Shown here: positions 1-15,621 of the stretch, in pieces
How positions within the stretch are numbered: position 1 is the first letter of the stretch
Layout: every line of letters begins with the position of its first letter
Assembly: GCA_026014495.1 (NCBI GenBank)
Contig: JAOZIF010000009.1
Location: 1 to 15,621, forward strand
Length of the DNA stretch: 15,621 nt
Source: Candidatus Bathyarchaeum sp.
Lineage (GTDB): Archaea; Thermoproteota; Bathyarchaeia; Bathyarchaeales; Bathyarchaeaceae
Direction of reading: 5' to 3'
Notes under the pieces: model-generated
The model's database searches: none
The model's input: only the letters and a program-made list of their open reading frames with translations
Told to the model about the DNA's origin: nothing
Position numbers and translations under genes: made by a program

Positions 1-2
1 AG

Positions 3-161
3 GTTTTTTTAACAATTCGTGACGACACAACAGTATGGATAACGACTTCAAACGAAAGCTGTTATGAAAGTTCTCGGCTAATGTCAAACAACTTTCATAT
101 CGTAGCGCTGGCCAGAAATTATTACAAAACAATACTCAAAGAAACTGTGGAAGACAGCTAG
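3..161 (+). CDS. Partial CDS (C-terminus only), resembles the C-terminal effector domain of TrmB-like archaeal regulators
   Basis: Frame open from base 3 to TAG at 159-161: VFLTIRDDTTVWITTSNESCYESSRLMSNNFHIVALARNYYKTILKETVEDS*. The ending SNN-x3-VALA-x-NYY-x-T recalls TrmB C-termini. Resemblance by eye only. Confidence 0.45.
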   Translation, partial: VFLTIRDDTTVWITTSNESCYESSRLMSNNFHIVALARNYYKTILKETVEDS

Positions 162-255
162 TTTCCAGTTAATAGTTAGGGCCCTTATTTGAGGGGTTTG
201 GGTCAAATTTTAACAAAAAAGGGGGGTCTGCGAGATTGTTGTCGGGTGATGCCGC

Positions 256-291
256 CGCTGGTCGCTGGTTCAAGTCCGGCCCTCGGCACCA
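256..291 (+). tRNA. tRNA 3'-half fragment (variable loop, T-arm, acceptor 3' strand, discriminator A, CCA); 5' half absent from the window
   Basis: TGGTC, then GCTGG-TTCAAGT-CCGGC T-arm (264-280), then CCTCGGC-A-CCA (281-291). No matching GCCGAGG/GCCGGGG 5' strand or D-arm at 1-255 or just downstream. The acceptor would fit a GCC-starting tRNA with A73 (e.g. Met or Phe); identity not determinable. Confidence 0.75.
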
Positions 292-465
292 CCACGTTAA
301 AATTGAGTGTTTTATTTTGTGAGTCATGACGATAACTTGTGGTCTAAAGTTTTAAATCAAAAGTTAAGCACTCAAAAGAAAGGGGGTTTGCTGAGGCTCC
401 TACACGGGCGATTAAAGAGGAAAAAATGAAAAGGGCGTTAACTTTTGATGGTTTTAAGCTATTTT

Positions 466-831
466 TTATTGTAAGATACTAATCAGCATATTGCAAACGG
501 CCTTTTTCGATTGTAAGATTTCTTTAATTCTGTTTTCGCCTTTTTCTGTAAGCGAATACAGCCTCTTCCGTTTACCATTTGTGGCCTCGAGTAGCTCCTT
601 GCGTTCCATAGAATACAGTAGAGTATAAATTGTGCCTGAACTGATTGAAACATTTAATTCATCATAAATTACTTCAATAACATCGTAGCCACTAAGTGGT
701 GTACGCTCCAGTAACTTCAGCAAAATAATGACATCCAATAGACTTCTAATTAGTCGTTCATGCATTTCTTTCAAAATCTTTGTTTCCAATTTAGTGTCAT
801 TCTGATCGGTTCTTGTTTCACATGTCTTCAA
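466..831 (-). CDS. PadR-family winged-helix transcriptional regulator
   Basis: LDVIILLKLLERTPLSGYDVI...SSGTIYTLLYSMERKELL...RKRLYSLTEKG is the PadR signature. TTG start preceded by GGAGGTGG (841-848, minus strand). Confidence 0.9.
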   Translation of the reverse strand: MKTCETRTDQNDTKLETKILKEMHERLIRSLLDVIILLKLLERTPLSGYDVIEVIYDELNVSISSGTIYTLLYSMERKELLEATNGKRKRLYSLTEKGENRIKEILQSKKAVCNMLISILQ

Positions 832-1606
832 GTTTATTTGCCACCTCCTGCAAGTCGTTAAAGAATGGATGATTGGGGTTACCCATCATCAGAAACGTAC
901 CATTTTTTGGTTCAAGCACGTCACAATAGCATGGAATTACACCTATTACTGGATGTTCAAGGACTTTTTCTATTTGACCAGCTAATTCGGCTCGTTTTAT
1001 TGAGGACCACATTCGGGTTTGAGGATAAGCTTTGTTGATTAAGACCCATGGCTTTTTTTCAAACTCATCATAAACCTCAGAAAGCATCTTTTTGACACCC
1101 TCAATATCTACGGGATTCAAAGTGACTACAACAACTGCCACATCGGAGCTAACGACAGCATTAATTGATGAATACTGGATACCAGGGCTGGTGTCTATGA
1201 TACAATAGTCTATGTGCTTTTTGTCAAAAAGTGTCTTGCGTATGGAAAAAAGTTTTTTTGCAGCACTTACTTCCCATGACCTACTTCGTCCAGTAACTTT
1301 CCGAATTGCTTCAAGAGTAGGATTTGCCAAACCTAAAAGCAAGCTTCCACGCGTATCAAAACATTCTGAAGCATCAATCAAACTTTGCTCAAGCGTACAT
1401 CGGTCAACCATAAAGTCATTCAACCAATGCACCGGAGTTTTTATCCTTTTTGAAAAAACGCTGAATAAACTTGGAGCACGAAAATCAAGGTCCAACAATG
1501 CAACATTCAAGCCATTGTTGGCGTAATTTAGCGCCAAATTTGTTGCAATAGTAGTTTTCCCAGTACCACCACGTGATGAGTGAATGGCTATTATTTTTCC
1601 TTTCAT
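818..1606 (-). CDS. MinD/ParA-family P-loop ATPase
   Basis: IIAIHSSRGGTGKTT deviant Walker A, DLDFRAPSL switch I, IIDTSPG Walker B, VLINK motif. ATGA overlap with the upstream wHTH gene. Confidence 0.9.
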   Translation of the reverse strand: MKGKIIAIHSSRGGTGKTTIATNLALNYANNGLNVALLDLDFRAPSLFSVFSKRIKTPVHWLNDFMVDRCTLEQSLIDASECFDTRGSLLLGLANPTLEAIRKVTGRSRSWEVSAAKKLFSIRKTLFDKKHIDYCIIDTSPGIQYSSINAVVSSDVAVVVVTLNPVDIEGVKKMLSEVYDEFEKKPWVLINKAYPQTRMWSSIKRAELAGQIEKVLEHPVIGVIPCYCDVLEPKNGTFLMMGNPNHPFFNDLQEVANKLEDM

Positions 1607-2040
1607 TCCGAAATCTCCGAAGCGTTAATGCAAAAATAGACTTTTCTTCCTTCACGCTTTTTGTTGACAAAGCCCAGTCTTACTAATTGATTTGCCGAAG
1701 CACTTTCTACAGCTCTCAGCCTCTTTGTTTCTTTTGACAAGTCGTCAGCTGTAGCTTCTTGAAGCTTGTATATTGCAATAACCGTTTTTCTTAACGAGTT
1801 TGGTATAGAAAGTAGAGTCATCATGTCAGGTTCGAGCTTAAGTGTTCTATAATCGGAATTTTGTTCAGGGTTTCCCTGCAGCAACTCTTTATGAATTTTT
1901 AACATTTTTGCATCAAACTCAATTATTAAATCAAGTTTCTGGTTCAATTTGTCAACTTCATCAATCAGTTTCACCAATAGCAATTTAATACTCAATTCGT
2001 CTATTGCATTGCTGTTTTCGGGTCCACCCTGCAGAGCCAA
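1603..2040 (-). CDS. Winged-helix DNA-binding protein with N-terminal coiled-coil
   Basis: C-terminal LRKTVIAIYKLQEATADDLSKETKRLRAVESASANQLVRLGFVNKKREGRKVYF is an HTH plus wing. N-terminal heptad-like LIDEVDKLNQKLDLI. Start codon uncertain (TTG). Confidence 0.8.
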   Translation of the reverse strand: MALQGGPENSNAIDELSIKLLLVKLIDEVDKLNQKLDLIIEFDAKMLKIHKELLQGNPEQNSDYRTLKLEPDMMTLLSIPNSLRKTVIAIYKLQEATADDLSKETKRLRAVESASANQLVRLGFVNKKREGRKVYFCINASEISE

Positions 2041-2047
2041 TCACCAA

Positions 2048-2073
2048 TGTATTATTGTAGCGACAATAATACA
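2048..2073. promoter_or_regulatory. Perfect 11-bp inverted repeat, candidate operator in the divergent promoter region
   Basis: TGTATTATTGT-AGCG-ACAATAATACA between the wHTH start (2040, minus) and the prenyl-synthase start (2147, plus). Confidence 0.6.
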
Positions 2074-2146
2074 GTTATGGCTTATAACACTTTTCTGTAT
2101 AGAACACAATAGTGTTAAAGAGTGTAACTTGAAATAGAACCACAAA

Positions 2147-3169
2147 GTGATGATGTTAATGTATATCGAGTCTGCTCTAAAAAAAACGTGCAATAAACTT
2201 CTTGAAGATAATGGAGGAAATGTAGCGAATAAAGCGAACTTGATATTGTTTGAAGATCCAGCTTTGAAACAACTAAAACAACCTTTAGAGTTTATTTCAA
2301 AAAATTGGCGGGATCCACTCACCCCTGCTTTAATGAAGCTTTCGTGTGAAGCTGTAGGAGGACAAGCCGAAAACACCTATGATGTAGCGGTGTCGCTTAG
2401 CTTGATGAATCTGAGTTTTTATGTCTGGGACGACATGGTAGATAAAACAACGTACAAATCATTCAAACCTACGCTTTTTGGAAAATTTGGTGAAGGACCA
2501 GCTTTGATAATTGGTGGACTTGCTTCAGCTAAAGCGTTTTCAATTCTAAATGAAATGAACACAGATATACAAAAACGTCAAATTATAACTCAGCTAATCT
2601 GGAATCTTTGGGCAAAGATGGCTACGGCTGAAAAAGTAAATGTTAGGTCGCGTAGACAGTGTTCTTCATCTGATAAACTTTGGGTGTTCACAACTGAGGC
2701 TGCCGACCTAGAAACATGTCTAAAACTTGGAGCAATCTTAGGTGAGGGTTCTGATGAAGAAGTCAAGCAACTAGGCCGATATGGACTAAACATTGGAATA
2801 ATTTTAGAATTATGGAAAGACTTTCTCGTGTCCATTAATTTGACGTTTGAACTTGCTGAAAAAATAAGAGCTAATAGATTGCCCTACTCTTTGCTGGTAG
2901 CAATGGAGCACTCTGAAAACCTTCGGAAGAACATCGAAAAATTAGCTAATATTGAGTCAATACAACCATCTGACATAAAACAAGTTGTAGAACAGGTCAT
3001 AGCAACGGAACAACTAAAAAACATCATTACACACATAGAAAAGTCTGCAAAAGAAGCAAAGAACAGCCTTTTAGGGTTAGATGCAAACGAAGCCACAGAA
3101 AAACTGGGTATGTTTGCTGAAGCACAACCCAGACTTTTTATCGAAAGCCTATCAGTATTGCAAACGTAG
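2147..3169 (+). CDS. Polyprenyl-synthetase (trans-isoprenyl diphosphate synthase) fold protein, atypical: first DDxxD intact, second degenerate
   Basis: PALMKLSCEAVGG, WDDMVD (FARM, 2429-2443), KPTLFGKFGEGPALIIG, LKLGAILGEG, LGRYGLNIGIILELWKDFL. Start could be 2147, 2150, 2153 or 2159. Confidence 0.85.
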   Translation: MMMLMYIESALKKTCNKLLEDNGGNVANKANLILFEDPALKQLKQPLEFISKNWRDPLTPALMKLSCEAVGGQAENTYDVAVSLSLMNLSFYVWDDMVDKTTYKSFKPTLFGKFGEGPALIIGGLASAKAFSILNEMNTDIQKRQIITQLIWNLWAKMATAEKVNVRSRRQCSSSDKLWVFTTEAADLETCLKLGAILGEGSDEEVKQLGRYGLNIGIILELWKDFLVSINLTFELAEKIRANRLPYSLLVAMEHSENLRKNIEKLANIESIQPSDIKQVVEQVIATEQLKNIITHIEKSAKEAKNSLLGLDANEATEKLGMFAEAQPRLFIESLSVLQT

Positions 3170-3172
3170 AGT

Positions 3173-3406
3173 TCATACTATTTGTGGCCATTTCGCGTTT
3201 GGACTGACGGATAGAATTATTGGTACAATAGAGCTCATGTAACTGTCTGGAATTTTTGCTGTTCTACACACGTTTATAAGCATTGTTTTATCCTGTTTCT
3301 CAACAGCTTCTTGAACTTTGGGGAATACATTGGGGGTCAACAATAATTGCAGATAAGACGAAATATCTCCAATTTTTTCTTTAAGTTTTTTCATCAAGAT
3401 CACCAT
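3173..3406 (-). CDS. Small hypothetical protein (73-77 aa), candidate precursor peptide
   Basis: Clean ORF filling the gap between two genes. GGTGA SD 5 nt before the ATG at 3394 suggests MKKLKEKIG... (73 aa). Ends LSVSPNAKWPQIV. Confidence 0.7.
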   Translation of the reverse strand: MVILMKKLKEKIGDISSYLQLLLTPNVFPKVQEAVEKQDKTMLINVCRTAKIPDSYMSSIVPIILSVSPNAKWPQIV

Positions 3407-3492
3407 TTAGAAAATATACTAGTTCTGCTCTTAAGATTTATTATCTAAACCAAGTATAAATCTAGTTCTTATCAAAGAAGTGATGCTGGAAA

Positions 3493-4713
3493 TTGAACGT
3501 AATACTGACTGGTTTTAAAATTGCTAAGACCGACTTTTTCGTTAATCTGATTCTCCAAGTATCTTTTCTTTCGTTATATTATGTCGCATCTGTTTCAATT
3601 CAACAACTTGTTGGTTCATCGGACGAAATCTTTCTACTGGTTTATGGAATTTACCACATAATCATCGCAATTACGTTACTGGCGTGTATGTTTTTCCTTA
3701 AAAAAATCAAAGTCCAGAATATCTATAGATGTGCCATAGCCATTTTAGCCGCACTAATCATTATTTTATTATTACCAAAAGGGCCTTTTGGGCTTGTTTT
3801 CATTTTCATAGAAGGCGTGTTTTTTGCCATAGGGCAATTAATCGCTTTCACATATTTTTGGAACATAACAACATCCGAAGAAAGGGGAAGAATAGCAGGT
3901 TTTATTGGCTTCTTTGCTATACCTCTTGCATATTTCGTGGGCATAGTCACGCAACTTCTTGATTCGTTTGGAATCGTAATTGTAGCTGCTTTTTTTGTTG
4001 CAGCAATATTAGCAACAAAAGTATTAAACCCAGAAAAGAGGTTCCGTTCTAGAAAAAATCACGAAATAGAAGATGGGGTAAGTCAAGAAAAAAGGACAGT
4101 AATTTTGTATGCTATTCCCTGGATAATATTTTCACTAATCAACGGCACAATTGATAGAAACCTTTCGCTTCACGTTATTCAGAGTGTCCCAGAATTTCTT
4201 TATTTTTTGCTTTTGCTTTTACAAACTATTGCAGCTGCTTTTGGAGCACTGAGTGGAGGAGTAATCGCCGATCTTTTTGGGAGAAAATTAGCTCTAAGTT
4301 TCAGTCTTACATTATACGGAATGAGTATAGCTCTCGGAGGCTTTGTTCAGAATATTGAGGTGTCTTATTTTGTTTTTGCATCAAGTGGCTTGAATTGGGG
4401 TATTCTATGGTCCTTGTACGGCTCTGTGGTTTGGGGTGATCTGTCAGATGAACAAAACTGTTTCAAAAGATATGCTGGTGGATTGATAATTTTCTATTTT
4501 CCCCTCGCTTTAGGGTTACTTCTTTCCAATCTAATATCTCTGATTCCCGTAGTTTGGAGTGCACTTGTAGGTTGTTCATTGATTTTTCTTTCAAACATTC
4601 CATTGTTTTTGGCACCAGAACTGTTATCTGATGATTTTCGGGACAAAATAAGATTGAAACTGCACATGAATTTTGTCAAGAAACTTGATAAAAAAATGCA
4701 CAATCAGGGGTAA
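3493..4713 (+). CDS. MFS-type transporter (about 12 TM)
   Basis: Two blocks of about six hydrophobic helices separated by a hydrophilic loop (NPEKRFRSRKNHEIEDG). GGVIADLFGRK is MFS motif A; EERGRIAG motif also present. Confidence 0.8.
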   Translation: MNVILTGFKIAKTDFFVNLILQVSFLSLYYVASVSIQQLVGSSDEIFLLVYGIYHIIIAITLLACMFFLKKIKVQNIYRCAIAILAALIIILLLPKGPFGLVFIFIEGVFFAIGQLIAFTYFWNITTSEERGRIAGFIGFFAIPLAYFVGIVTQLLDSFGIVIVAAFFVAAILATKVLNPEKRFRSRKNHEIEDGVSQEKRTVILYAIPWIIFSLINGTIDRNLSLHVIQSVPEFLYFLLLLLQTIAAAFGALSGGVIADLFGRKLALSFSLTLYGMSIALGGFVQNIEVSYFVFASSGLNWGILWSLYGSVVWGDLSDEQNCFKRYAGGLIIFYFPLALGLLLSNLISLIPVVWSALVGCSLIFLSNIPLFLAPELLSDDFRDKIRLKLHMNFVKKLDKKMHNQG

Positions 4714-5648
4714 ATATTATCTGGAAGCCTTGGAAAAACTAAAGTGTCTTTTATGTGCTCCAGATTACACAGCCACTGGATAAATCTTTCAAGACCTATC
4801 ATAAACCCCGATTGAGGAACAGAACCTAAACGCCTAAGATTCAGATACCATCTTTGGTCTGCAGTGTCTATGTTCTCTTCAGCCATCTTTTTAAGTAAAA
4901 CCTCTTTTTCTGTTATCATTTGCCCTCCTCCCGCTATTTCTCCGTAACCTTCTGGCGCAAGTAATTCTGCAGATAAAGTTAGTTCTGGCCTTTTTGTGTT
5001 GGATTTGTAGAAGAATGTTTCAGCACTGACTGGAAAATCTGTAACAAAAAACGGTTGATCAAATTGAAGACTAATCTTTTTTTCTAACTCCCTGCTTAGG
5101 GGTTTCCCCCAAAAAACATTAGTATTCTCTTTTTGTAGCATTTCGATTGCCTCGTCATATGTTACTTTTGGGAAAGGTGCTTCAATCTTTTTTAAATCCT
5201 TAGCATGACGATGTAAGTGTGTTAACTCTTCTATCGAATCCGAGGCTAAACTGTGACAAATATGCGTTAGTAACTCCTCCTGAATTCTAATCATTTCATT
5301 TAAATCGCATTGTGGAGTGACTGCTTCAATTCGCCAGTATTCCGTTAGGTGACGATTTGTTCTCACTTTTTCTGCTCTGAAGGCTGGAGCAATAGTATAG
5401 ATTTTTCCTAGATGGGCAACAAAAACATCTGCATAAGGTTGAAGTCCCTGAGCAAGAAAAGCTTTTTTTTCAAAATATTTGACCTCAAAGTAGCCAGACC
5501 ATTCTCCTGTTGCAGGTATTATTGTCGGGCCTTGGACTTCTGTAAAACCTTGATCGTTGAACCAGGACCTAGCTGAATTTAACACTTTAGCTCTGACTTT
5601 TAATACAGCTCTTTTTCTTTGATCTTGCAAATTATCGGTGTAAAACAT
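4704..5648 (-). CDS. Class II aminoacyl-tRNA synthetase paralogue: AsnRS-like catalytic domain without the anticodon-binding domain
   Basis: Motif 1 GFTEVQGPTI, motif 2 FRAEKVRTNRHLTEY, LLAPEGYGEIAGG, motif 3 GFMIGLERF, C-terminal FPRLPDNIYP. Only 314 aa; no OB-fold upstream. Confidence 0.88.
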   Translation of the reverse strand: MFYTDNLQDQRKRAVLKVRAKVLNSARSWFNDQGFTEVQGPTIIPATGEWSGYFEVKYFEKKAFLAQGLQPYADVFVAHLGKIYTIAPAFRAEKVRTNRHLTEYWRIEAVTPQCDLNEMIRIQEELLTHICHSLASDSIEELTHLHRHAKDLKKIEAPFPKVTYDEAIEMLQKENTNVFWGKPLSRELEKKISLQFDQPFFVTDFPVSAETFFYKSNTKRPELTLSAELLAPEGYGEIAGGGQMITEKEVLLKKMAEENIDTADQRWYLNLRRLGSVPQSGFMIGLERFIQWLCNLEHIKDTLVFPRLPDNIYP

Positions 5649-5785
5649 GAATTAGTTAAAAAGAATGTTTACCAAATTAAGTTTGCTGAAAAACTTTCCA
5701 AATAATTGAAAAATGAAGAAACGTGAATCACGCTAAAAATAAACAAAATTACTCTTGAAACGTAAACAAATGGACTTTTGATCTT

Positions 5786-5944
5786 TTAGTCATCATTTAC
5801 GCTCACAACAAGAACTTTTTCAACCCATGGAATTACCTGCGGGAATTTTAGAAGCTCTGTAAAAATTTCTGTAGCAAGCTCATCATTAGACAGTTCGATA
5901 CTTTCTTTCACAAGTGAAACCAAAATCTTTGCTTTTTTAGTCAT
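5786..5944 (-). CDS. Small hypothetical protein, 52 aa (not in the ORF track)
   Basis: Hand translation: MTKKAKILVSLVKESIELSNDELATEIFTELLKFPQVIPWVEKVLVVSVNDD*. GAGGT SD just upstream of the ATG at 5944. Confidence 0.7.
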   Translation of the reverse strand: MTKKAKILVSLVKESIELSNDELATEIFTELLKFPQVIPWVEKVLVVSVNDD

Positions 5945-6056
5945 CTAAACCTCATCCACAATGTCTAGATTTAAAAATCAATGATTCCAATTATTTAAAA
6001 GATTTACTGTGAATGTATTATCTGATTCTGAAAATATTTTTCTACAATTAATTTAT

Positions 6057-6122
6057 AAAAAAAGGGAGTTTGCGGGTGATGTCTCCACTGGGCGCTGGTT
6101 CAAGCCTGACGCGCGGTATCAC
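6057..6122 (+). repeat. Degenerate second copy of the tRNA-3'-half repeat at 215-292
   Basis: 6073-6122 aligns ungapped with 243-292 at 39/50 (offset 5830). The A6-G-run-T(C/T)TGC upstream is also shared (14/17), across a 12-nt deletion. Confidence 0.75.
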
Positions 6123-6154
6123 AATTTAAGATTAGAATAGACGCCACAATTGTT

Positions 6155-7042
6155 TTACTTTTTGTTATGAAACAGCAGGGGCACGCCAGCTAAGGGCAGG
6201 ACAAGTGCCCATAGGTCCATGTTGTGACCAAGGAACCATGCGTACCAGTAGCTCCATTTTGCATCTGTTCCAAAAAGCAGCCACATTACATATATAACAA
6301 GGAAATACAAACCAACCGCAGTTACAATCGCGCCAACCTTTCTCAAGTTAAGTTTCTCCAAAGACTGTGTTCCTATAGATTTTTTGGTAAAATATGCAGC
6401 ATACAATGCAAGCGCAAGTAAGCCAACTGTGGTTAAACCGAAACTTAGAATGTGATCAGGATATGCGGTGACGTATTCTATGCCTTTTTCGGTAACTGTT
6501 GATGCCCAGTTTCCAGTGTTGTTTAACCAAAACATGAAAATGTAAATTGTTCCTGCGATTAATCCCCATTTGATGGCGCCTTTTTCTGGCTTGTTTGGGT
6601 TTAGTTCAAAAAACAGTTTAACAAGCGCAACTGGAATGATAACTGATTCAACAAAAACGGGCAGCGCACTTTCGAGGATGGTACCTAAACCTAAACTTGA
6701 GGCTCCAGTGTTAAGTGCCATAAACCAGATTAGAACAGGAAAAAGAGCTAAGAAGTAAACTATCTCGCCTAAGATTACCCAACGTACAGACATTAACAAC
6801 TCAGGCTTTGAGAGGTCTTTTTTAGCGATAAAGAACAAAATCGTGAATACAGCTATTAGGGCAGCCATTGTTCTGAAGCCCAACCCAAACATGCCTGCAG
6901 TGTCGGTGAGTGCTATCCAAAAACTAGAGTGATAAATGTTGAATGCGCCCTTAATGAACTGATAACCGCTAAAGAAAAACCACACTAATGCAACACAAAG
7001 CAGACCAAATTTCAGGGGCAAATTATCTTTTGTTTCAATCAT
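6155..7042 (-). CDS. Polytopic membrane protein of unknown function (about 7-8 TM)
   Basis: 295 aa with repeated hydrophobic helices; no recognised motif. Confidence 0.75.
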   Translation of the reverse strand: MIETKDNLPLKFGLLCVALVWFFFSGYQFIKGAFNIYHSSFWIALTDTAGMFGLGFRTMAALIAVFTILFFIAKKDLSKPELLMSVRWVILGEIVYFLALFPVLIWFMALNTGASSLGLGTILESALPVFVESVIIPVALVKLFFELNPNKPEKGAIKWGLIAGTIYIFMFWLNNTGNWASTVTEKGIEYVTAYPDHILSFGLTTVGLLALALYAAYFTKKSIGTQSLEKLNLRKVGAIVTAVGLYFLVIYVMWLLFGTDAKWSYWYAWFLGHNMDLWALVLPLAGVPLLFHNKK

Positions 7043-7209
7043 TTGATCAGCTCTTAAACACCTAAAAACGTCCGTTTGTTAATTATGTCTTGGTTATTAT
7101 TTAACATTTCAATCTGACACTAATGTCACATCTGTTAGAAACAAGACCCTTCAAGAGTTAAGGTAGTCTTATTAATTCACTTCACACAATACACAATTGA
7201 GGAGTAGTT

Positions 7210-7449
7210 TTGGTAAACTTAACAGCTAGACAATTGAATCGATTTCTGTTAGGGGTTCAAGGTGTAACTGCGACATTTTGCGGCACGTTCATCATTGTAT
7301 ACTTGCTTGGATTACGTGACCTTCCAGAAAACGTTGTCTACCACTCAGACTCTACATTTAGAGCCGCACTTTCCACACTTGGTGTTCTAGCACTAATACT
7401 CATAGCGGCAACAATCGGTCTAAGTCTTTTTGTGAAACGCAAAAACTAA
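7210..7449 (+). CDS. Small 2-TM membrane protein
   Basis: TTG start after GAGGAG SD; two hydrophobic segments; basic C-terminus KRKN. Confidence 0.65.
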   Translation: MVNLTARQLNRFLLGVQGVTATFCGTFIIVYLLGLRDLPENVVYHSDSTFRAALSTLGVLALILIAATIGLSLFVKRKN

Positions 7450-7582
7450 AATTCACATATTCAACAGCATCAAGCAACCAAGCCATGTATTTGGCGACAT
7501 AATTGTCCAGTCAACAATTAAAACAGGATTAAGTGTCAGTTTAACTCCTATTATAAAACGAACCCACGCTTTACGTGAAGGA

Positions 7583-7876
7583 TTACTTCTTTTGATTTGC
7601 TGTTTTCTGGTTTACAATTCTTCTGTTTCTCACATAGAGCAAAGCATCAACACTAACCATTGTCAAGTTGATGGCATAGAAAACGACGACAAGGTCTGGG
7701 TGATAAAAGATTTTATGCAAAATACCCGCAAGATAACCAAACCAGACAATCACCAGAAAAGCTAGGCTCTTTCCGTTTATTGAATGGGAAACAATAGATT
7801 TGTGGATAGAAAAAGGCCACGCAGCGCCGAAACAAAGAAGCATGACAATTTCGAAAATGCTCATTAGGCAAATCAC
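7583..7876 (-). CDS. PQ-loop / SemiSWEET-like 3-TM half-transporter
   Basis: FEIVMLLCFGAAWPFSIHKS...GKSLAFL...GYLAGILHKI...FYAINLTMV pattern, 3 TM. Likely start is the ATG at 7864. Confidence 0.65.
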   Translation of the reverse strand: MICLMSIFEIVMLLCFGAAWPFSIHKSIVSHSINGKSLAFLVIVWFGYLAGILHKIFYHPDLVVVFYAINLTMVSVDALLYVRNRRIVNQKTANQKK

Positions 7877-7943
7877 TTTTGAGTTAGAGGTTTAGGTGCA
7901 TGTGTTACTCGGCTTTGATAAAGATGACTGTTTTTGTTTTACG

Positions 7944-8216
7944 TCAAAAGCTCTTCTTTACAATCATGTAAAGTGTAAACACAACCACCAAATATGCAGA
8001 TGTCCGAACAATTATCAGGAACGATTCTAGGTCATCTTTAAGTCCCAGAATTGTTGCCAGATGAGAAACTCCGAATAAACCAAAAGCTATACCGATGTAA
8101 AGGGGCACCGCATTACCTGTTTTTTTGTAACCAAAAAAGCCCAAGAGAAGTATTATAATGCAAAGTGTCAAGTTCACAAGGTAAATGGGGTCCAACAAAT
8201 ATGCCATAGAATGCAC
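7944..8216 (-). CDS. Small 3-TM membrane protein
   Basis: Three hydrophobic helices (VNLTLCIIILLLG, PLYIGIAFGLFGVSHL, IVRTSAYLVVVF). AGGTG SD favours the ATG at 8207. Confidence 0.7.
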   Translation of the reverse strand: MHSMAYLLDPIYLVNLTLCIIILLLGFFGYKKTGNAVPLYIGIAFGLFGVSHLATILGLKDDLESFLIIVRTSAYLVVVFTLYMIVKKSF

Positions 8217-8228
8217 CTGCTACCTTTT

Positions 8229-8534
8229 TCATGGTTTGTTCTGTTTTTTGAGGTATATATATGCAACGTAAACTATTGCTGAAATTATTGTCCAGAATAC
8301 AATGTCAGCTATCAAAGACCCTCCGGAATTATACAGTAAATAATCTTCAGGGCTTCCAGGCACAATTATTGTCACTTTTTCTAGCCAAAGAATTGGTAAA
8401 CCATAACCAGTTATTGTTGCGCCTAAACCTACAGTCATATCTTGAGAATACAGTACTGACAACAAAGTAACAACTACGCCACATATGACGACCAGCACGA
8501 TTGGTTTTATTTTCATTTTTTCATGCCATCCCAA
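8229..8534 (-). CDS. Small membrane protein
   Basis: N- and C-terminal hydrophobic helices with a GYGLP-x2-W loop. Likely start is the ATG at 8516 (MKIKPIVLV). Confidence 0.6.
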   Translation of the reverse strand: MGWHEKMKIKPIVLVVICGVVVTLLSVLYSQDMTVGLGATITGYGLPILWLEKVTIIVPGSPEDYLLYNSGGSLIADIVFWTIISAIVYVAYIYLKKQNKP

Positions 8535-8879
8535 ATTTCAGTTTTTTGAATAATACGTTTGAATTATGTGAGGCACCCGCAACGGCGCCGATGATTTTGT
8601 CGTATGGGTGATAAAAATTCACAAATGTTTCCCCCATTGATGGCTATCACACGGTATATGTCCGAGTGTTAACATATAAATCAGTTTAAAGCGGTTTCTT
8701 GTTCTTAACATTTGTGGGAGCAGTCAACAAAGAAAGCCGCATTTTTTGTTCAAAACAACAGATACAGTAGAGTCACAGCAAACAGCGACATTAAATCTAG
8801 AAAATGCCAAACAGATAACCGCATTTGGTTTCATGAAATATTAAAAAAGGCAGATGCCAGAAGGCTACTGGAGACGTTT

Positions 8880-9674
8880 ATGAAACGGCAGCACTGGGTA
8901 ATCATATTGAGCATAATAGGGATAATAGCAGTCAGCTCTGCTACAGTGGTTCCACTAAACAACAGCCCAGTTGATACTGAAGCGTTTTACTACACATACA
9001 CGGTTGTCAACACGTATCCTCATGATGAGGATGCTTTCACACAAGGGCTAGTGTTTGAGGACAGCGTCTTATATGAGGGAACAGGACACTATGGAGAATC
9101 ATCACTTCGTCGCATAGAATTAGAAACAGGTAACGTAACAAAGCTTCACTTGTTATCTGACAACTTGTTTGGCGAAGGCATTACAATCTTTGAAGACAAA
9201 ATCATCCAACTAACATGGCAAAACAACATAGGCTTTGTTTATAACAAAAGCTCCTTTGAGTTATTGCAGACTTTTGAGTACCCCACTGAAGGCTGGGGAA
9301 TCACACATAATGGCAGCGTGCTGATAATGAGTGATGGTACAGCAAACCTGTATTTTTTGGACCCAGAAACATTCCAGACAGTTGGTCAAGTTGAAGTTCA
9401 CGACAAAGAGCCCATAGATTTGCTTAACGAACTCGAATACATAGACGGAATGGTCTACTCAAACATCTGGAAAGAAGACCTGATTGTGATAATAGACCCG
9501 CAGACGGGGCAGGTCTCAGGGTGGATAGACTTGACAGGCATCAATGATTCTGCGAATCAAGCTACAAGTGGTGTTCTAAACGGGATTGCATACGACCCAA
9601 ATGAGGACAGGCTCTTTGTGACCGGAAAAAGATGGACACAACTTTACGAGATTGAACTGGTTCCGACACAATAA
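8880..9674 (+). CDS. Glutaminyl-peptide cyclotransferase (plant/bacterial beta-propeller type), N-terminal signal/anchor
   Basis: FTQGL, YEGTG, FGEGI, QLTW, EGWGI, SDG, LNELE, LNGIA, VTGKRW motifs all present. The ATG at 8880 follows GGAG and opens a signal-like MKRQHWVIILSIIGIIAV, so it is preferred over 8712. Confidence 0.92.
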   Translation: MKRQHWVIILSIIGIIAVSSATVVPLNNSPVDTEAFYYTYTVVNTYPHDEDAFTQGLVFEDSVLYEGTGHYGESSLRRIELETGNVTKLHLLSDNLFGEGITIFEDKIIQLTWQNNIGFVYNKSSFELLQTFEYPTEGWGITHNGSVLIMSDGTANLYFLDPETFQTVGQVEVHDKEPIDLLNELEYIDGMVYSNIWKEDLIVIIDPQTGQVSGWIDLTGINDSANQATSGVLNGIAYDPNEDRLFVTGKRWTQLYEIELVPTQ

Positions 9675-9735
9675 CGCGAATCAGAAAAACATGTTTTTGA
9701 TGTTGTATTTTAGTACAAGTATACAATGTAAAGCG

Positions 9736-10521
9736 TTACCATCCTCCGCCGGAACCGCCTCCTCCAGAACGTCCACCGCCTCCGCCGCCTCCAGAGCGAC
9801 CTCCGCCTCCGTAACCGCCGCCCCAGCCCCTTCCTCTTCTGCCTCCACCGAAACGGCCACCAAAAACAATCATGATACCTACAAAGATGACTATAAGCAC
9901 AATAACCCATACTGGAATCTCTTCGTCGTATGAAAGTTCTGCATTATCGTAAACATATCTTCCACGTGTTGACATGCGGTCTGTTTCATCTACAACTGGT
10001 ATCTCTAGTGTAAGAGCAATAACAGTGTAGGCAAATCCTTCCCCGTATTCACCTTCCTGAAACTTCGGAACCAAATACTCCTCTGCTATTCTACGGGATT
10101 CTACGTCTGTTATGTAGCCTTCCAGCCCGTACCCTATTTCGATTCGCCATTCCCGCTCTTCCATTGCAACAAGAACCAAGACGCCGTTATCTTTTCCCTT
10201 TTTTCCAATTCCAACCACAGAGCCGCTGGGCGTATCCAAGGGTAACTCGTTGAAGATGTACACGCCAAGCTGGACAATGTCGTTGATTTCAACTCCATCC
10301 TTTGTGATGCCGTGACCGTACAAAGAATCCACAACGTAGATGACTATCTCTGCAGTGGTGTTCGTGTCAACGTCAAGAAGATAGGATTCAATGTCATATT
10401 TCCAGTCATCAGAAATCACCTGCCCATTAACAGGCACAACTGAAACAGGAATAGACACTAAACTAGCTAAAACCATCACTAATAAAAAAGAAAAAAGAGG
10501 GGTTCTTGGCACGTGAAGCAT
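9736..10521 (-). CDS. TPM-domain (YgcG-like) membrane protein with Gly-rich C-terminal tail
   Basis: AEIVIYVV, GIGKKGKDNGVLVLVA, RIEIGYGLEGYITD, TM helix, then GGGRSGGGG tail; directly downstream of lemA. Confidence 0.92.
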   Translation of the reverse strand: MLHVPRTPLFSFLLVMVLASLVSIPVSVVPVNGQVISDDWKYDIESYLLDVDTNTTAEIVIYVVDSLYGHGITKDGVEINDIVQLGVYIFNELPLDTPSGSVVGIGKKGKDNGVLVLVAMEEREWRIEIGYGLEGYITDVESRRIAEEYLVPKFQEGEYGEGFAYTVIALTLEIPVVDETDRMSTRGRYVYDNAELSYDEEIPVWVIVLIVIFVGIMIVFGGRFGGGRRGRGWGGGYGGGGRSGGGGGGGRSGGGGSGGGW

Positions 10522-10549
10522 CTAGTCGCCTCTAGTTACTTGTTTTAGT

Positions 10550-11131
10550 TTATGTTACTGACGGAGGGTTTTCAGCTCCACTGGTAGATTCAAAGAATTC
10601 TCTAGCTTCAAATCCCCATCCTGATGCCCAGATATTTGCAGGAAAAGACCTGCGTGCGCTGTTGTAGTCTCCTACAGCATCGTTGTATCTTATGCGTTCT
10701 GTAGAAATTCTGTTTTCTGAACCCTCAAGCTCAGTAATCAAGTCTTGCACTATCGCAGACGACTCCAAGTCAGGGTACGCTTCAACAACTACTCTAAACT
10801 GATATATTGCGGAATCAAGGTTATTTGTAGCATCAACTATGGCGTTTTCGTCTCCGGTGGCTTGTGCTTGTGCCCATTGGCTTCTAAGCATTGTTACGTT
10901 TTGGAGTATAGATCCCTCATATTCTATGTAGAGTTTAGCAGCGTCCACAACATTTGGTATCAAATCAAACCTTCTTTGCAAAACAGCCTCAACATCAGCC
11001 CATGTTTCATCCACTTTCACTTCAAGATCCACTAAATTATTGTAAGTCCCAATGTATAGCGCCGCAAAAACAACTCCGACCAAAATAACCGCGACAATAA
11101 TAACCACTACAGCAATCAATTTACTGTTCAT
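10550..11131 (-). CDS. lemA: LemA family protein
   Basis: YNNLV...WADVEAVLQRRFDLIPN, VEAYPDL, ELEGSENRI...RYNDAV..YN...FPAN are LemA signatures; N-terminal TM helix. Confidence 0.95.
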   Translation of the reverse strand: MNSKLIAVVVIIVAVILVGVVFAALYIGTYNNLVDLEVKVDETWADVEAVLQRRFDLIPNVVDAAKLYIEYEGSILQNVTMLRSQWAQAQATGDENAIVDATNNLDSAIYQFRVVVEAYPDLESSAIVQDLITELEGSENRISTERIRYNDAVGDYNSARRSFPANIWASGWGFEAREFFESTSGAENPPSVT

Positions 11132-11230
11132 TATAATCCCTGAATACCTGAGAAAAACAGCATGTAATATTCTTTACGGAAAAGTCATTCACTAAAGATT
11201 AAAAAAGGGTGAACAAAACCAAAAAATTAG

Positions 11231-11250
11231 AAAAAAGGGAGATGAATCCC
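11231..11250 (-). terminator. Hairpin + oligo-T terminator
   Basis: Minus strand GGGA-TTCATC-TCCC-TTTTTT immediately after the stop codon at 11251. Confidence 0.6.
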
Positions 11251-12840
11251 TTATTCTTCCAAGATTTTGTTTGCTTCTTCGCCGTATGCTTCCATCACGT
11301 AGGGGATTCCAGAGATTTTCGCTGCTTCCTCTGTTAGCGCCATCAAGTCTTTGCGGCTAATTGTAGAGAGCCTAAAGTTTCTGCTTCCAGCCATCAACTG
11401 CTGCAAACCAACTCTAAACTTCTGGGCATACGTGTATATTCCAACAGCACCCAAAGGTATGTCCTTGATGTCTGCTCCAAACTTTTCTTCAAGTTCGGCA
11501 TAGGCAACAAAGATTTCGCTAACGTCACTGCCATACTTTGAAACAGACTTGGGCAAATTGTCTTCATCTAGCCATTGTGCTATGTTCTTTCCAACCATTC
11601 CCGGAATCATCAAGCCTCTTCCCATACAAACCGCCTTAACGTATGGGCTACCCATTGCAAGCGCCTTGAACACACCATCCTCTGAAGAGAATCCTCCAGC
11701 CATTGCAAGGTCAGGAACTCGCATGCCTTTTCGTTTAAGCTTTTCACAGAACTTGTACGTTAGAGCCTGCAGATAGAACGTTGGAATTCCCCATTCGTTC
11801 ATCATTGGCCAAGGGCTCATTCCTGTGCCTCCAGGTGCACCATCAATTGTAAGTAAGTCCAGTTTTGCTTCTGCTCCATAACGTAGTGCCATAGCTAGTT
11901 CCAAGGCAGAGTAAGCGCCTGTTTTTAGGGTAACGCGTTTGAATCCTAAACCGCGGAGACGGTCAACTTCTTCTAAGAATGCTTCTTTTGTTACAAAGCC
12001 TAGTCTGGAGTGGCGCTCAAACTCTTTGATTGCCCCTTCCTCAAACGCTACTTGATTCTCCTTAAGAGTAGGGTCAGGCGAAACAACGTAGCCTCTCTTC
12101 TTAAGTTCAACAGCACGCTTCAAAGTTTTAACTTTAATTTCTCCACCAATACACTTAGCACCCTGTCCCCACTTCAATTCGATAGTATCTAAGTCATGCT
12201 TTGATGACACATACTCAGCTACTCCAAATCGAGTGTCTTCAACGTTCATCTGGACTAGCAGTTCGCCGTAGCCTTCATGAAATTTCTTGTAAATCTGTAT
12301 TCGGCGATCCATCTCAGGTGACTTGGAAATTTTTCCATTACTATCCAGCACAAGTCCAGGGTCGATTCCACAAACGTTTTCGCCACACACAAGCGTGATG
12401 CCCGAAATTGCGGCGCCTATTGCAAAGTGTTCCCAGTTCTTTCTTGCAATCTCTGTGGAACCCAATGCACCAGTGAATATTGGGACTCGCATCTTGACCT
12501 TTTTGGTCCAGCCGTAATCTGTTTCGGTGTCCACTTTAGGGAAAAGTGCAGTGTCTGGGTCTGCTTGGACTCCTTCTGGAAGCCCTTTTGCGCCTCGGGC
12601 GTAGCCTTGAATGTTAAGGTGGGAATAATCCACGGGGTAGTTTTTGTCTGCTCCCGCTGTTACTTCTCCGAAGGGTCCAGGGTAGAGTACCTCTCGGCCT
12701 CTAAATGATGATAACCAGATTTCGCAACCGCCTTTACAGCCATCAACACATCTTGAACAGATTCCCGACATTGGGACTACGTTCTTTGATCGATTGAAGG
12801 TACCGGTTGACTCGTCTGCATTTGGTCTTCTTAAATTCAT
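11251..12840 (-). CDS. FMN-binding glutamate synthase family protein (stand-alone FMN domain)
   Basis: IELKWGQGAK-x-IGGE, TIDGAPGGTG, MAGG and KALAMG FMN-barrel motifs; N-terminal CSRCVDGCKGGC. Confidence 0.9.
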   Translation of the reverse strand: MNLRRPNADESTGTFNRSKNVVPMSGICSRCVDGCKGGCEIWLSSFRGREVLYPGPFGEVTAGADKNYPVDYSHLNIQGYARGAKGLPEGVQADPDTALFPKVDTETDYGWTKKVKMRVPIFTGALGSTEIARKNWEHFAIGAAISGITLVCGENVCGIDPGLVLDSNGKISKSPEMDRRIQIYKKFHEGYGELLVQMNVEDTRFGVAEYVSSKHDLDTIELKWGQGAKCIGGEIKVKTLKRAVELKKRGYVVSPDPTLKENQVAFEEGAIKEFERHSRLGFVTKEAFLEEVDRLRGLGFKRVTLKTGAYSALELAMALRYGAEAKLDLLTIDGAPGGTGMSPWPMMNEWGIPTFYLQALTYKFCEKLKRKGMRVPDLAMAGGFSSEDGVFKALAMGSPYVKAVCMGRGLMIPGMVGKNIAQWLDEDNLPKSVSKYGSDVSEIFVAYAELEEKFGADIKDIPLGAVGIYTYAQKFRVGLQQLMAGSRNFRLSTISRKDLMALTEEAAKISGIPYVMEAYGEEANKILEE

Positions 12841-12912
12841 TTTGCTTCATCTCTCCAGTTTTTTGCCACACGCCATAACGGTATACGGCAACCTTTCGCC
12901 ATTTAGACGAGG

Positions 12913-12930
12913 GTGCTTATAAGATTTTTC
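12913..12930 (-). promoter_or_regulatory. Candidate BRE/TATA promoter of the glutamate-synthase-family gene
   Basis: Minus strand GAAAAAAT-CTTATAAG about 75 nt upstream of the ATG at 12840. Confidence 0.45.
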
Positions 12931-13120
12931 AATAAAATAATGTAATTGACGGTAAACATTCATTTTTCACTGTTACAAAATTGCAAATATGAACGTTCAT
13001 TCATGCTTGCCATCATGCATTCAAGCGTGAAGTTTTCTGTTTTTAACCAAAAAAGGAGGTGACCTTAACAGTTTTACGTTCAGTGTGTAAACTTATTAAA
13101 ATGTAGCAGGAGGATTTTGC

Positions 13121-13594
13121 GTGAGTGGAGGCAAATCAAAAGATGAGAATCTTATTGCATACTGTGGACTTTATTGTGGAGATTGTCATGGCTTTTCAGG
13201 AAAAATCCCGGATATGGCCCGAGATTTACGAAAGGAACTAAGGGCAACAAGATACGACAAATTTGCTGGTTTCATCTCGACATTTTCGTTTGGCAAAGAT
13301 TTCAAGGAATATGAGCAGTGCTACAAGGTTCTTGGTGCAATGGTAAAGTTTCGGTGCCGAAAAGGCTGCAGAAACGGTGGAGGTTCTCCTTTTTGCAAAA
13401 TCAGAATATGTGCCCAAAAGAAGGGTATTGAAGGCTGTTGGCTGTGCGGTGAATCTGAAAGCTGCAAAAAACTGGAGTTCCTGATTCCAGTTCATGGAGA
13501 TGCACATATCAAGAATTTGCGTGCAATTAAGCGAAAAGGTAAAGATGAGGCTTTGAAGGGCAAAATGCTCTGGTATAATAAACCCAAAAAATGA
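13121..13594 (+). CDS. DUF3795-like Cys-rich putative metal-binding protein
   Basis: IAYCGLYCGDC...CRKGCR...CKIRICAQKKGIEGCWLC...C; GTG start after GGAGG. Confidence 0.82.
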   Translation: MSGGKSKDENLIAYCGLYCGDCHGFSGKIPDMARDLRKELRATRYDKFAGFISTFSFGKDFKEYEQCYKVLGAMVKFRCRKGCRNGGGSPFCKIRICAQKKGIEGCWLCGESESCKKLEFLIPVHGDAHIKNLRAIKRKGKDEALKGKMLWYNKPKK

Positions 13595-13601
13595 ACGAAA
13601 G

Positions 13602-14441
13602 CTATGTTTGGCATTTGGGACACAGGTACACGTGACCTCCACCCAAACTCAGTTTTTCTATGGATGTTCCGCATTCTGAGCAAGTTTGCTCTTTCATGTT
13701 TGGTCCCATTGCCGCAGTGTAGCCGCCTTTTATTCCGTAGAAGTCGCGGAAATTGTCTTTTCCTTTGAGCTTGAGCCTTTCTGTAACAACAAACTTGATT
13801 GCGTCGTGTAGTCTGTGCTTTTCAGTTATGTCCAGTTCTGAGGCTTTTCGTTTTGGGTGAATTTTAGCCATATACAAAATGTCCTGAAAAGTGCTGTTGC
13901 TTATGCCAACAACAGCAGCGTCTTTGCCTACAAGCACCGCCTTTAACATTCTACTTTGGTCTACAATTAACTTAGAAAAACGTTCAAAAGTGAAGTCTTC
14001 ATCAACTGGTGAGAGCTTGTTTGGGTCAAAATCTCGCTTGTACACATACGAACTGTTCAAATCATTGTCTTTACGCAATTCTATGACCCCCATGCTCGTG
14101 AGCCTAACAGTTAACACTGTACCATCGTTGAAGTCAACTCGTAAATGAAACTTGGGAACAGTTTTGTCATCTACATGATAGAAGATTTCGCCGCCGTATT
14201 CTGGACCAAAAATCAGGTTGGTGTTATTGTCAAATTTGACGCGTATTACGTTACCCCTAGAAGTTACTGATTCGATTTTTGCGTCTAAAAGCTGATTAAA
14301 CGACTTTGGGTCTTTGTCCATCATGCCTATTTTTTGTAGCCGTTCACAGTCTTTTACCAGCCATGACGTCACACGTTTACCTTTCAGCTTGTGGTTCATT
14401 TGTTCCGCAAGAATCATGGCTTCTGGAAGCTCAACACTCAT
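13602..14441 (-). CDS. Fpg/Nei DNA-glycosylase family protein with substituted catalytic residues
   Basis: N-terminal ELPE, H2TH region LKAVLV...VVGISN...DILYMAKIHP, C-terminal zinc finger CSEC...CPKCQ. Confidence 0.9.
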   Translation of the reverse strand: MSVELPEAMILAEQMNHKLKGKRVTSWLVKDCERLQKIGMMDKDPKSFNQLLDAKIESVTSRGNVIRVKFDNNTNLIFGPEYGGEIFYHVDDKTVPKFHLRVDFNDGTVLTVRLTSMGVIELRKDNDLNSSYVYKRDFDPNKLSPVDEDFTFERFSKLIVDQSRMLKAVLVGKDAAVVGISNSTFQDILYMAKIHPKRKASELDITEKHRLHDAIKFVVTERLKLKGKDNFRDFYGIKGGYTAAMGPNMKEQTCSECGTSIEKLSLGGGHVYLCPKCQT

Positions 14442-14717
14442 TAAACTAGACCTCCAATCCCCAACACATTACTTTGTCATTAATGGATATAAGTTCTAAA
14501 ACTAACACAACACATTGTTTTATCCGACAAGCAGCTCCTCGAAAACGTTCTTTCTTTTAACAAAAATTAATACAACCAGAAGAACAAGTATCGCCACTTT
14601 TTTTGGGTTCAAATCCTAATGATGCCCTCCTAGACAGTTACATTAGTACATTCTGGTAGCTATTTTAGGAAACCCGTGAAAAGATGTGAAAAATACCCAT
14701 AACGCGAATTCATTCAT

Positions 14718-15449: not shown

Positions 15450-15542
15450 TCAACCCCGTGACATACACTCCAGCCCTCTTTTTTGCTCGCCAGTTTTCCA
15501 TTTAATGCTGCAACCTATAACGTTTATCTGCCATGTAGAGCT

Positions 15543-15567: not shown

Positions 15568-15568
15568 T

Positions 15569-15619: not shown

Positions 15620-15621
15620 CG

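Follow-up and report, generated by a model that had tools for sequence, protein, structure and literature searches.

Prenylation of peptides and proteins by enzymes that resemble the trans-type synthases of isoprenyl diphosphates (trans-IDS) is known from a few bacterial systems, ComQ, StheQ, PalQ and ChrPC. In a 2026 review, all characterised trans-IDS-like peptide prenyltransferases are bacterial and Trp-specific, and all of them act on Trp (PMC13290415). ComQ keeps FARM, the Asp-rich motif that comes first in the trans-IDS fold, and lacks the second one (SARM), and the PalQ/PalX complex of Paenibacillus alvei was first recognised by structure prediction (PMC10853753). In Sphaerobacter thermophilus, StheQ binds full-length StheX, as measured by size-exclusion chromatography (SEC); StheX has 69 aa, folded from residue 1 to 59 and followed by a flexible tail with W68 (bioRxiv 10.64898/2026.08.29.745113). 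A Gln one helical turn before the degenerate second motif (pseudo-SARM) and the Asn at the first position of this motif are implicated in StheQ, ComQ and Ord1, and the loss of SARM and of the residues of the isopentenyl diphosphate (IPP) site is incompatible with trans-IDS chain elongation (PMC13290415; bioRxiv 10.64898/2026.08.29.745113). The importance of the pseudo-SARM Asn comes from mutagenesis of StheQ and ComQ (bioRxiv 10.64898/2026.08.29.745113). Here, we compare with these systems a cassette at positions 466–5944 of a 15,621-nt stretch of Candidatus Bathyarchaeum sp. DNA (Bathyarchaeia; contig JAOZIF010000009.1, positions 1–15,621, hereafter the window). A preliminary description of this DNA, made from the letters alone, knew of no characterised archaeal example, and our literature search, whose coverage was incomplete, found no archaeal trans-IDS-like peptide or protein prenylation either.

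The scans for open reading frames (ORFs) and for Pfam and NCBIfam families gave eight closely packed genes across 466–5944, apparently a single conserved, horizontally mobile cassette of Bathyarchaeia. Its two central genes are a polyprenyl-synthase-like (PS) gene on the plus strand (2147–3169; PF00348 with 45.9 bits at a cut-off of 27), a candidate peptide prenyltransferase whose probable start is the ATG at 2159, where the homologues begin, and the minus-strand gene of a 73-aa protein (3173–3394, convergent with PS and 3 nt away from its stop; the conserved start is at 3394, the ORF extends to 3406), the candidate prenyl acceptor. From sequence comparison, structural models and analogy, we propose with moderate confidence that the PS-like enzyme prenylates a near-C-terminal Trp or Tyr of the 73-aa protein and that the rest of the cassette exports the product and regulates the system. 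The PS-like protein would no longer elongate isoprenoids; it would bind an allylic prenyl diphosphate by its intact first Asp-rich motif and pass the prenyl group on to W69 of the 73-aa protein, the Trp (Tyr in other members) at position −5. The four-helix domain of the latter would dock on the enzyme and its disordered tail would enter the active-site cavity, as proposed for StheQ/StheX, ComQ/ComX and PalQ/PalX. A protein similar to the major facilitator superfamily (MFS) would then export the product, and an operon of a winged helix-turn-helix (wHTH) protein, a ParA-like ATPase and a PadR-family regulator, facing the enzyme gene across a palindromic operator, would control or assist the system. 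An enzyme derived from asparaginyl-tRNA synthetase (AsnRS) probably still forms an acyl-adenylate and may add a further modification. The product may be a cleaved peptide, a signal, an antimicrobial lipopeptide or a lipid-anchored protein.

The preliminary description had spoken of a one-motif prenyl-synthase homologue, and indeed FARM is kept as W-D-D-M-V-D and the SARM position reads K-D-F-L-V. Among 21 aligned family members, D95, D96 and D99 of FARM are invariant, the second motif is degenerate (K224-D225-F-x-V, with only the second Asp retained) and the basic IPP-site motif (G-K-R-x-R region) is replaced by N-W-R-D-P-L-T-P in all 21. FARM is also kept in all the distant PS paralogues, and the loss of the IPP-site motif is common to the whole superfamily including them. 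The retained FARM would preserve donor binding, and, in the absence of SARM and of the IPP-site residues, the protein should be incompatible with chain elongation. The features of a chain-elongating trans-IDS (second DDxxD, IPP-binding basic residues) are missing. Of those of a trans-IDS-like peptide Trp prenyltransferase, the trans-IDS fold, DDxxD in FARM and the adjacent gene of a small precursor are present. The synthase equivalogs of NCBIfam score at most 70.8 bits on this protein against cut-offs of 275–600, and the genome has three further PF00348 genes, including a canonical paralogue at 262 bits. A profile of the 21 members matches the geranylgeranyl pyrophosphate (GGPP) synthase 1wy0 with an E-value of 4e-19 and the Trp farnesyltransferase Ord1 (9v4g) with 6e-8. 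The AlphaFold2 (AF2) model (pLDDT 86.9) has the trans-IDS fold and is closest to the archaeal GGPP synthase 1wy0 (TMq 0.79), with 0.72 to Ord1. Besides FARM, about 70 positions are invariant in the family, whose members are 55–74% identical.

The 73-aa product has, as described earlier, a single Trp five residues from its C-terminus, which reads S-P-N-A-K-W-P-Q-I-V. Its AF2 model consists of four helices (residues 4–62, pLDDT >90) and a disordered tail (residues 63–73, pLDDT 60–67). Eighteen of the 20 recovered copies encode exactly 73 aa, and the 62-residue domain is as conserved as the PS enzyme. An aromatic-Pro pair stands near the C-terminus in 46 of 47 distinct sequences, followed by exactly three residues in 36 of the 47, and these last residues are hypervariable. 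The aromatic is Trp in 36 and Tyr in 10 of the 47, so that the conservation of the Trp, on which the preliminary description had made its idea depend, is partly lost. Searches with 33 members of the family gave no Nif11 or NHLP model at E-values up to 10 and no other Pfam family, and Foldseek against PDB returned nothing below an E-value of 4 for the 73-aa protein. A fold search of the Atlas yielded unnamed helical proteins; in a wide fold search the best Z was 5.9, no acyl carrier protein was among the matches, and the Nif11 leader 9zn4 took rank 10 (Z 4.5, root-mean-square deviation 4.5 over 62 residues), which is the noise level of helical bundles. That the conserved Cys43 could be an aminoacyl-thioester site for the AsnRS paralogue is pure speculation; a module in the congeneric genome G160 has the small protein and no AsnRS paralogue. 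A predicted protein of 220 aa that joins the N-terminal half of a PS orthologue to the C-terminal half of the small protein (P0145, locus L066) comes from one sample, on a contig of 1240 nt; as a probable chimera of the assembly it was not used as evidence.

Co-folding of enzyme and peptide, a check named in the preliminary description, passed its controls with the tail in the interface. The ipSAE of the PS and 73-aa proteins was 0.79 (0.78–0.80 in three runs), compared with 0.47 for the best of three controls; 58 of 80 solved complexes clear the pass mark and 2 of 110 mismatched pairs do so, rates that are approximate here since the alignments were custom ones. At least 87% of the contacts are common to the runs, and the partner's pLDDT is at least 81. 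In the predicted interface, the pseudo-SARM helix (230–237) and enzyme residues 272–286 pack against the small protein's helix 1, while tail residues 63–70 and 72 contact enzyme residues 54–59, 88 and 104–107, which flank the FARM helix and line the cavity. The enzyme's interface residues also include 220–237, so that they are placed around both the FARM helix and the pseudo-SARM. The model thus supports a predicted binding of the 73-aa protein to the PS-like protein.

Conservation of the gene order was assessed in 20 loci, from 3 metagenomic or genomic contigs and 17 species genomes. As far as their contigs extend, all 20 loci show the same order and strands: PadR(−), ParA(−), wHTH(−), PS(+), small(−), MFS(+), AsnRS-like(−). 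The linkage of prenyltransferase, small Trp-peptide, MFS transporter and AsnRS paralogue across Bathyarchaeia, which the preliminary description had left to be checked, is therefore kept far beyond chance. Between these syntenic loci the identity of PS falls from 74% to 44%, and the flanking genes differ. In one genome (G113) the wHTH-ParA pair is inverted with its adjacency kept, which argues for functional coupling rather than mere inertia; wHTH keeps its place beside the cassette at the inverted-operon locus L039. A search of protein databases with PS gave 420 proteins at E-values up to 0.001; the best 120 of the 420, the window's own gene call aside, are 55–74% identical, and those of them that carry an organism name are all from Bathyarchaeia. 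Within the class, the distribution of the cassette is patchy. In an even sample of 201 genomes PS orthologues (at least 39% identity) occur in only 3, and none was found in 5 congeners that are 92–97% complete. The small-protein family is confined to the same 3 of 201 genomes, apart from one weak match beside a PS paralogue. At two loci, L035 and L036, PS is truncated; the truncation extends at L035 to the small gene and MFS, while ParA, PadR and the AsnRS-like gene have full length there. From their sequences, these two copies are decaying cassettes.

A module of ParA, wHTH and PadR with PS and MFS recurs more distantly, at 25–33% PS identity. An older one is found in the same genome (contig C73, L040:6284–11270; 27% PS identity) and contains two PadR genes besides PS-like, MFS-like, ParA and wHTH genes; the FARM of its PS-like protein is H-D-D-I-I-D and the second motif E-D-F-I-D. 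Similar modules exist at fifteen further loci in related genomes, and PS is paired with MFS in 15 of 17 tabulated distant paralogue loci. Within the first 130 nt past the PS stop, on the opposite strand, 13 of 16 paralogue loci have a tiny ORF of 12–24 codons with a Lys-rich start, P-x-R and an aromatic in its last 1–4 residues, which is Trp in 10 of them (one ends K-P-I-R-L-A-G-S-W-I). In shuffled sequences this pattern occurs in a mean of 0.11 loci (maximum 2), and on the other strand in 0. In C73, two identical ORFs of 14 codons, both with the end R-I-Y-G-V, arise from a tandem duplication of 230 nt past the PS stop. In the G160 module (L037; G160:C18, 3999–9791), the small protein has a homologue of 85 aa with Trp at its end; with it go MFS, a PS paralogue beside it that keeps DDxxD, a gene resembling geranylgeranyl reductase, ParA and a KaiC/RecA-like ATPase. 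That a peptide or protein with a near-terminal aromatic lies convergent to the PS gene across these modules is the strongest comparative argument that the enzyme would act on this residue.

Several observations weigh against the proposed prenylation. Glu221 is invariant at the position of the Gln one helical turn before the pseudo-SARM, and Lys224 is invariant where the pseudo-SARM of ComQ and StheQ (N-D-x-x-x) has Asn. The characterised enzymes act on Trp, whereas 10 of the 47 small proteins have Tyr; moreover, the only small-ORF candidate of the C73 module is without Trp and has Tyr. The whole small protein, and not just a terminal part beyond a leader, is conserved, and neither a protease nor a cleavage motif is present with it in the cassette. 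The predicted complex leaves the enzyme residues that contact the Trp unspecified, and a plug or a regulatory subunit would look alike. Most of the distant paralogues keep a DDxxD-like SARM, so that the loss of SARM is not superfamily-wide, and the tiny-ORF pattern was defined after seeing the sequences, so its exact figure means less than how large the excess is. Before the second motif, the distant paralogues have no Gln either; directly ahead of it stands mostly Arg. Comparison of the enzymes with W- and Y-type partners, of which only two are Y-type, gave differences at positions 139, 160 and 189, none of them at the predicted interface, and is uninformative for or against. Overall, the earlier idea that a trans-IDS-like enzyme prenylates a near-C-terminal aromatic gains from synteny, co-occurrence, the co-fold and the tiny ORFs, and loses from the Tyr variants and the replacement of the Gln and Asn implicated in the known enzymes.

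StheQ/StheX is similar in the trans-IDS fold with an intact FARM and a non-canonical second motif, in the adjacent gene, whose product of about 70 aa is folded in its N-terminal part and ends in a flexible tail bearing a near-end aromatic acceptor (a candidate one in the cassette), and in the binding of the full-length protein by the enzyme (SEC for StheQ, co-fold prediction for the cassette); the likeness to StheQ and ComQ is drawn from published descriptions rather than from a direct sequence alignment or tree. In contrast, the cassette is archaeal and known from sequence and models alone, Glu221 and Lys224 replace the Gln and Asn of Q-x-x-N-D, and the candidate acceptor is W or Y with an invariant Pro at −5/−4, compared with W at −2 in StheX. 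Its enzyme and small-protein genes are convergent, and it adds MFS, the AsnRS paralogue, the ParA/wHTH/PadR operon and att-like repeats. With Bacillus ComQ/ComX it shares the kept FARM and lost SARM (PMC10853753), a near-C-terminal Trp and polymorphic residues around the acceptor, but it has no ComP/ComA-type two-component pair, its genes alternate in strand and are not co-transcribed, and its precursor is longer, with a structured conserved domain and Tyr variants. Since the cassette enzyme is closest to archaeal GGPP synthases (1wy0), it was probably derived independently of ComQ. PalQ/PalX offers a long conserved leader domain, a conserved terminal Trp and a strict distance of the acceptor from the C-terminus (PMC10853753). 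It differs in that PalQ forms its own terpene-synthase-like cluster, the Trp of PalX is the very last residue and the PalX leader is of NHLP type, whereas the cassette's small protein has no Pfam match. In its supposed mode of action, the cassette comes nearest to StheQ/StheX and ComQ/ComX. The replacement of Gln by Glu and of Asn by Lys, the tolerance of Tyr and the missing ComP/ComA pair would make the system an archaeal variant of trans-IDS-like peptide or protein prenylation and not a member of the ComQ family. If so, this chemistry would extend to Archaea, in a globally abundant uncultured lineage, with a different active-site solution (Glu/Lys for Gln/Asn) and possible Tyr acceptors, and would open a concrete way into the cell-cell signalling, antagonism or lipidation of proteins in Bathyarchaeia.

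Among other explanations, a small-isoprenoid pathway is possible though rather unlikely: PS would make or rearrange a small isoprenoid, MFS would move it, and the 73-aa protein would be a gating subunit instead of a substrate. PS, MFS and ParA/wHTH/PadR are indeed the core common to all paralogous modules, one module (that of G160) has the geranylgeranyl-reductase-like gene, two have tandem PS genes, and some trans-IDS are heteromers in which a small subunit is non-catalytic (3aqb and 9kp1 are among the matches); the co-fold, for its part, cannot separate a substrate from a subunit. Known small subunits of trans-IDS have 140–250 aa and mimic a trans-IDS protomer, however, and a peptide of only 12–24 residues, such as those with a C-terminal Trp at this place in other modules, cannot serve as a structural subunit. 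An invariant aromatic-Pro pair at a fixed distance from the end of a disordered tail has the appearance of an acceptor site, and the IPP-site motif is lost in the whole superfamily. We regard as less probable still, at the level of an unlikely case, a ComQXPA-like quorum-sensing pheromone that would be cleaved and exported and whose sensing would alter transcription. PadR and wHTH belong to the cassette throughout, a conserved operator palindrome is present, the last three precursor residues are hypervariable like those that determine a pherotype, and the patchy, mobile distribution is that of polymorphic pheromone loci. Against this, no HisKA, HATPase or Response_reg domain was found in the eight cassette proteins with Pfam and NCBIfam, and the family scans gave no receptor-like membrane sensor or protease; the 62-residue domain is conserved as much as the enzyme, and a cationic antimicrobial lipopeptide or a lipid-anchored protein fits equally well. 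The genes are convergent and not co-transcribed as in comQX, a caveat of the preliminary description that is borne out and that counts against a ComQXPA-like version. The transcriptional response of quorum-sensing type proposed there is not upheld, as the cassette has no histidine kinase or response regulator and nothing points to quorum sensing.

Similarly low is the chance we give to a more specific form of the prenylation proposed above, in which the 73-aa protein would be a mature protein lipid-anchored through C-prenylation of its Trp or Tyr (a non-Cys counterpart of CaaX) and modified independently of tRNA by the AsnRS paralogue, all on an integrase-less 5.8-kb cassette at tRNA 3′ ends. 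It is improbable, and more so than the pheromone, that the block is a partition or maintenance module of a small integrative element whose cargo is decayed or non-enzymatic; the proteins resembling PS and AsnRS would then be binding proteins or pseudoenzymes, linked by co-transfer only. A ParA-like ATPase with two DNA-binding proteins does resemble archaeal partition cassettes, an example of which is AspA-ParB-ParA of pNOB8; at two loci the block lies between direct repeats of tRNA ends, L035 and L036 show decay among PS, the small gene and MFS, and the Arg of G-G-S-x-R is variable in the AsnRS-like protein. Such pseudoenzymes would hardly keep FARM and some 70 other PS positions invariant or retain the motif 2 and motif 3 arginines of the AsnRS-like protein; the block contains no replication or integrase gene, and the persistence of the same architecture in old paralogues speaks for selection on function. 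Hardly credible, finally, is a chance neighbourhood of housekeeping genes, a GGPP synthase for membrane lipids and an archaeal asparagine synthetase of AsnA type. Some sources do label the PS orthologues geranylgeranyl pyrophosphate synthase, and the NCBIfam models of asparagine synthetase A match below threshold; yet SARM and the IPP site are lost, the canonical paralogue is elsewhere in the genome, and the orthologues are limited to 3 of the 201 sampled genomes and 0 of the 5 congeners. The AsnRS-like protein reaches 170.8 bits against a cut-off of 368 for AsnA (NF005052) and 59 bits to the solved archaeal AsnA 3p8t, over residues 189–309 only, so that it does not belong to archaeal asparagine synthetase A (AS-AR). 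The genome also has a non-discriminating aspartyl-tRNA synthetase (AspRS), GatB and GatE, and no full-length AsnRS was found in the 93%-complete assembly, hence free Asn would be without its usual consumer.

The enzyme that the preliminary description had derived from an aminoacyl-tRNA synthetase is an AsnRS catalytic core of 314 aa without the anticodon-binding domain, encoded at 4704–5648 on the minus strand, and it aligns to residues 128–434 of Pyrococcus horikoshii AsnRS (1x54) with 258 bits. It is 50–53% identical to full-length AsnRS of other Bathyarchaeia, but, having no N-terminal OB anticodon-binding domain in front of the class IIb core, it is not a full AsnRS; the asnS models give 265–282 bits, under their cut-offs of 343–414, and the EpmA model 56.6 bits at a cut-off of 286.9. 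The family retains G-Y-G-E and the arginines of class II motifs 2 and 3. The Arg of G-G-S-x-R, which we take to be the side-chain-binding residue of AspRS and AsnRS structures, varies among the members (M, R, T, L, K, S or A). This pattern points to an ATP-dependent adenylating enzyme whose acceptor or substrate has changed. AS-AR (3p8t) and EpmA/PoxA are likewise catalytic cores alone with the motif 2 and 3 arginines, and by analogy the cassette protein could amidate, or aminoacylate a non-tRNA acceptor; it is much nearer to genuine AsnRS than to either of them, and its G-G-S-x-R Arg is not conserved. Among the loci seen, it is found only inside the cassette, in every cassette-type locus reaching that far, and it is absent from the older paralogous modules; the cassette thereby brings a new anticodon-less AsnRS paralogue as well as a compact integrase-less mobile unit.

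The MFS-like membrane protein (3493–4713, plus strand; 406 aa), the candidate exporter, is divergent from the 73-aa gene as first described, and the 3′ end of its gene overlaps the AsnRS-like gene convergently. Its PF07690 match (E-value 1.3e-7, residues 20–312) has 31.3 bits, just under the gathering cut-off of 33.4, and the D-x-x-G-R-K loop motif is visible. In the loci examined, the gene always comes after the small gene. The remaining elements of the block listed in the preliminary description were also real and in their places by ORF and family scans. The second small ORF (5786–5944, minus strand; 52 aa) has no family match in Pfam or NCBIfam and is conserved in 9 of 19 loci, with a conserved I-P-W. 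It may stand on either cassette flank, to the right of the AsnRS-like gene (minus strand) or to the left of PadR (plus strand); the loci include L002, L003, L022, L027 and L032.

The adjacent regulators are present too, with a ParA-like ATPase between them, and the conserved unit begins with PadR at 466, so that it is larger than the block first drawn from 2147. On the minus strand follow one another a 145-aa wHTH protein (1603–2040) with a coiled-coil-like N-terminal part and a TrmB/Lrs14-like C-terminal wHTH (PF01978, E-value 1.7e-4), the ParA/MinD-superfamily ATPase (818–1606; AAA_31, ParA and CbiA matches) and the PadR-family wHTH regulator (466–831; PF03551, E-value 1e-11). Their genes overlap by 4–14 nt, which makes them one operon with PadR last. 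PadR has a conserved position in all loci reaching it. The ParA-like ATPase is 49–73% identical in 17 loci and occurs also in the distant paralogous modules; in its Walker A, S-S-R-G-G-T-G-K-T, Arg stands where a deviant Walker A has its signature Lys. At least 90% of the 17 orthologues share the C-terminal motif C-Y-C-D-V-L, which is reminiscent of the metal-bridged dimers of Get3/NBP35-type relatives. In the divergent wHTH/PS promoter region, 9 nt upstream of the wHTH start, lies an operator-like perfect 9-N6-9 palindrome, GTATTATTG-N6-CAATAATAC (2049–2072), of a kind not expected in shuffled sequences. Degenerate copies align in 15 of 15 loci compared and are followed by a conserved TATA-like ATATAAGA. 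The palindrome fits autoregulation by one of the two wHTH proteins.

The att-like repeats noted earlier around the block exist as 55-nt direct repeats resembling tRNA 3′ ends, without being intact tRNAs. The left copy (238–292), with a T-arm, an acceptor strand and a CCA-like end, and the more decayed right copy (6068–6122) are 76% identical and 5.83 kb apart. ARAGORN, both by default and with introns allowed, found no tRNA at the repeats, nor did Rfam at E-values up to 5; a dubious intron-containing tRNA-Ser at 188–291 appeared at the relaxed ARAGORN threshold only. The left repeat is probably an attachment-site scar or the 3′ part of an undetected tRNA. At L023, the cassette lies between an HD-domain gene with tRNA-Glu and a phosphoglycerate mutase gene, and the last 27 nt of this tRNA-Glu recur (25/27) just beyond the AsnRS-like gene, 5.77 kb away, with no integrase near the cassette. 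Among the other loci, only L023 has a clear tRNA-derived bracketing pair; L028 and L030 have weak repeat pairs of 29–39 nt that are possibly due to chance. Bracketing repeats and patchy distribution together indicate an integrase-less cassette that inserts at tRNA 3′ ends. The window's tRNA-like 3′ end is present in all five congeners, two of which (G160 and G098) have it together with the right-hand neighbourhood, without the cassette and with other DNA between. As the congeners offer no clean empty site, insertion is supported but not delimited.

In G160, two copies of the tRNA-like 3′ end stand 1.6 kb apart (L061; G160:C9, 44793–46470). The comparison suggests that this site is a recurrent insertion hotspot. 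ARAGORN misses, in three congeners (L062–L064), a conserved tRNA-like 3′ half with the look of a long variable arm, which may be part of a tRNA gene that is split or contains an intron. PADLOC gave no meaningful defence match for the cassette, and PHROGs gave generic ParA and DNA-binding matches only. Three kb to the right of the cassette, at 8712–9674, is a glutaminyl cyclase gene (PF05096, 319 bits), which is probably unrelated, since it lies outside the repeats in a region that is syntenic in congeners without the cassette. Further on, at 9736–15449, the window encodes a TPM-domain protein, LemA, a glutamate-synthase-like protein, a DUF3795 protein, an Fpg/Nei-like glycosylase and a Rossmann-fold protein.

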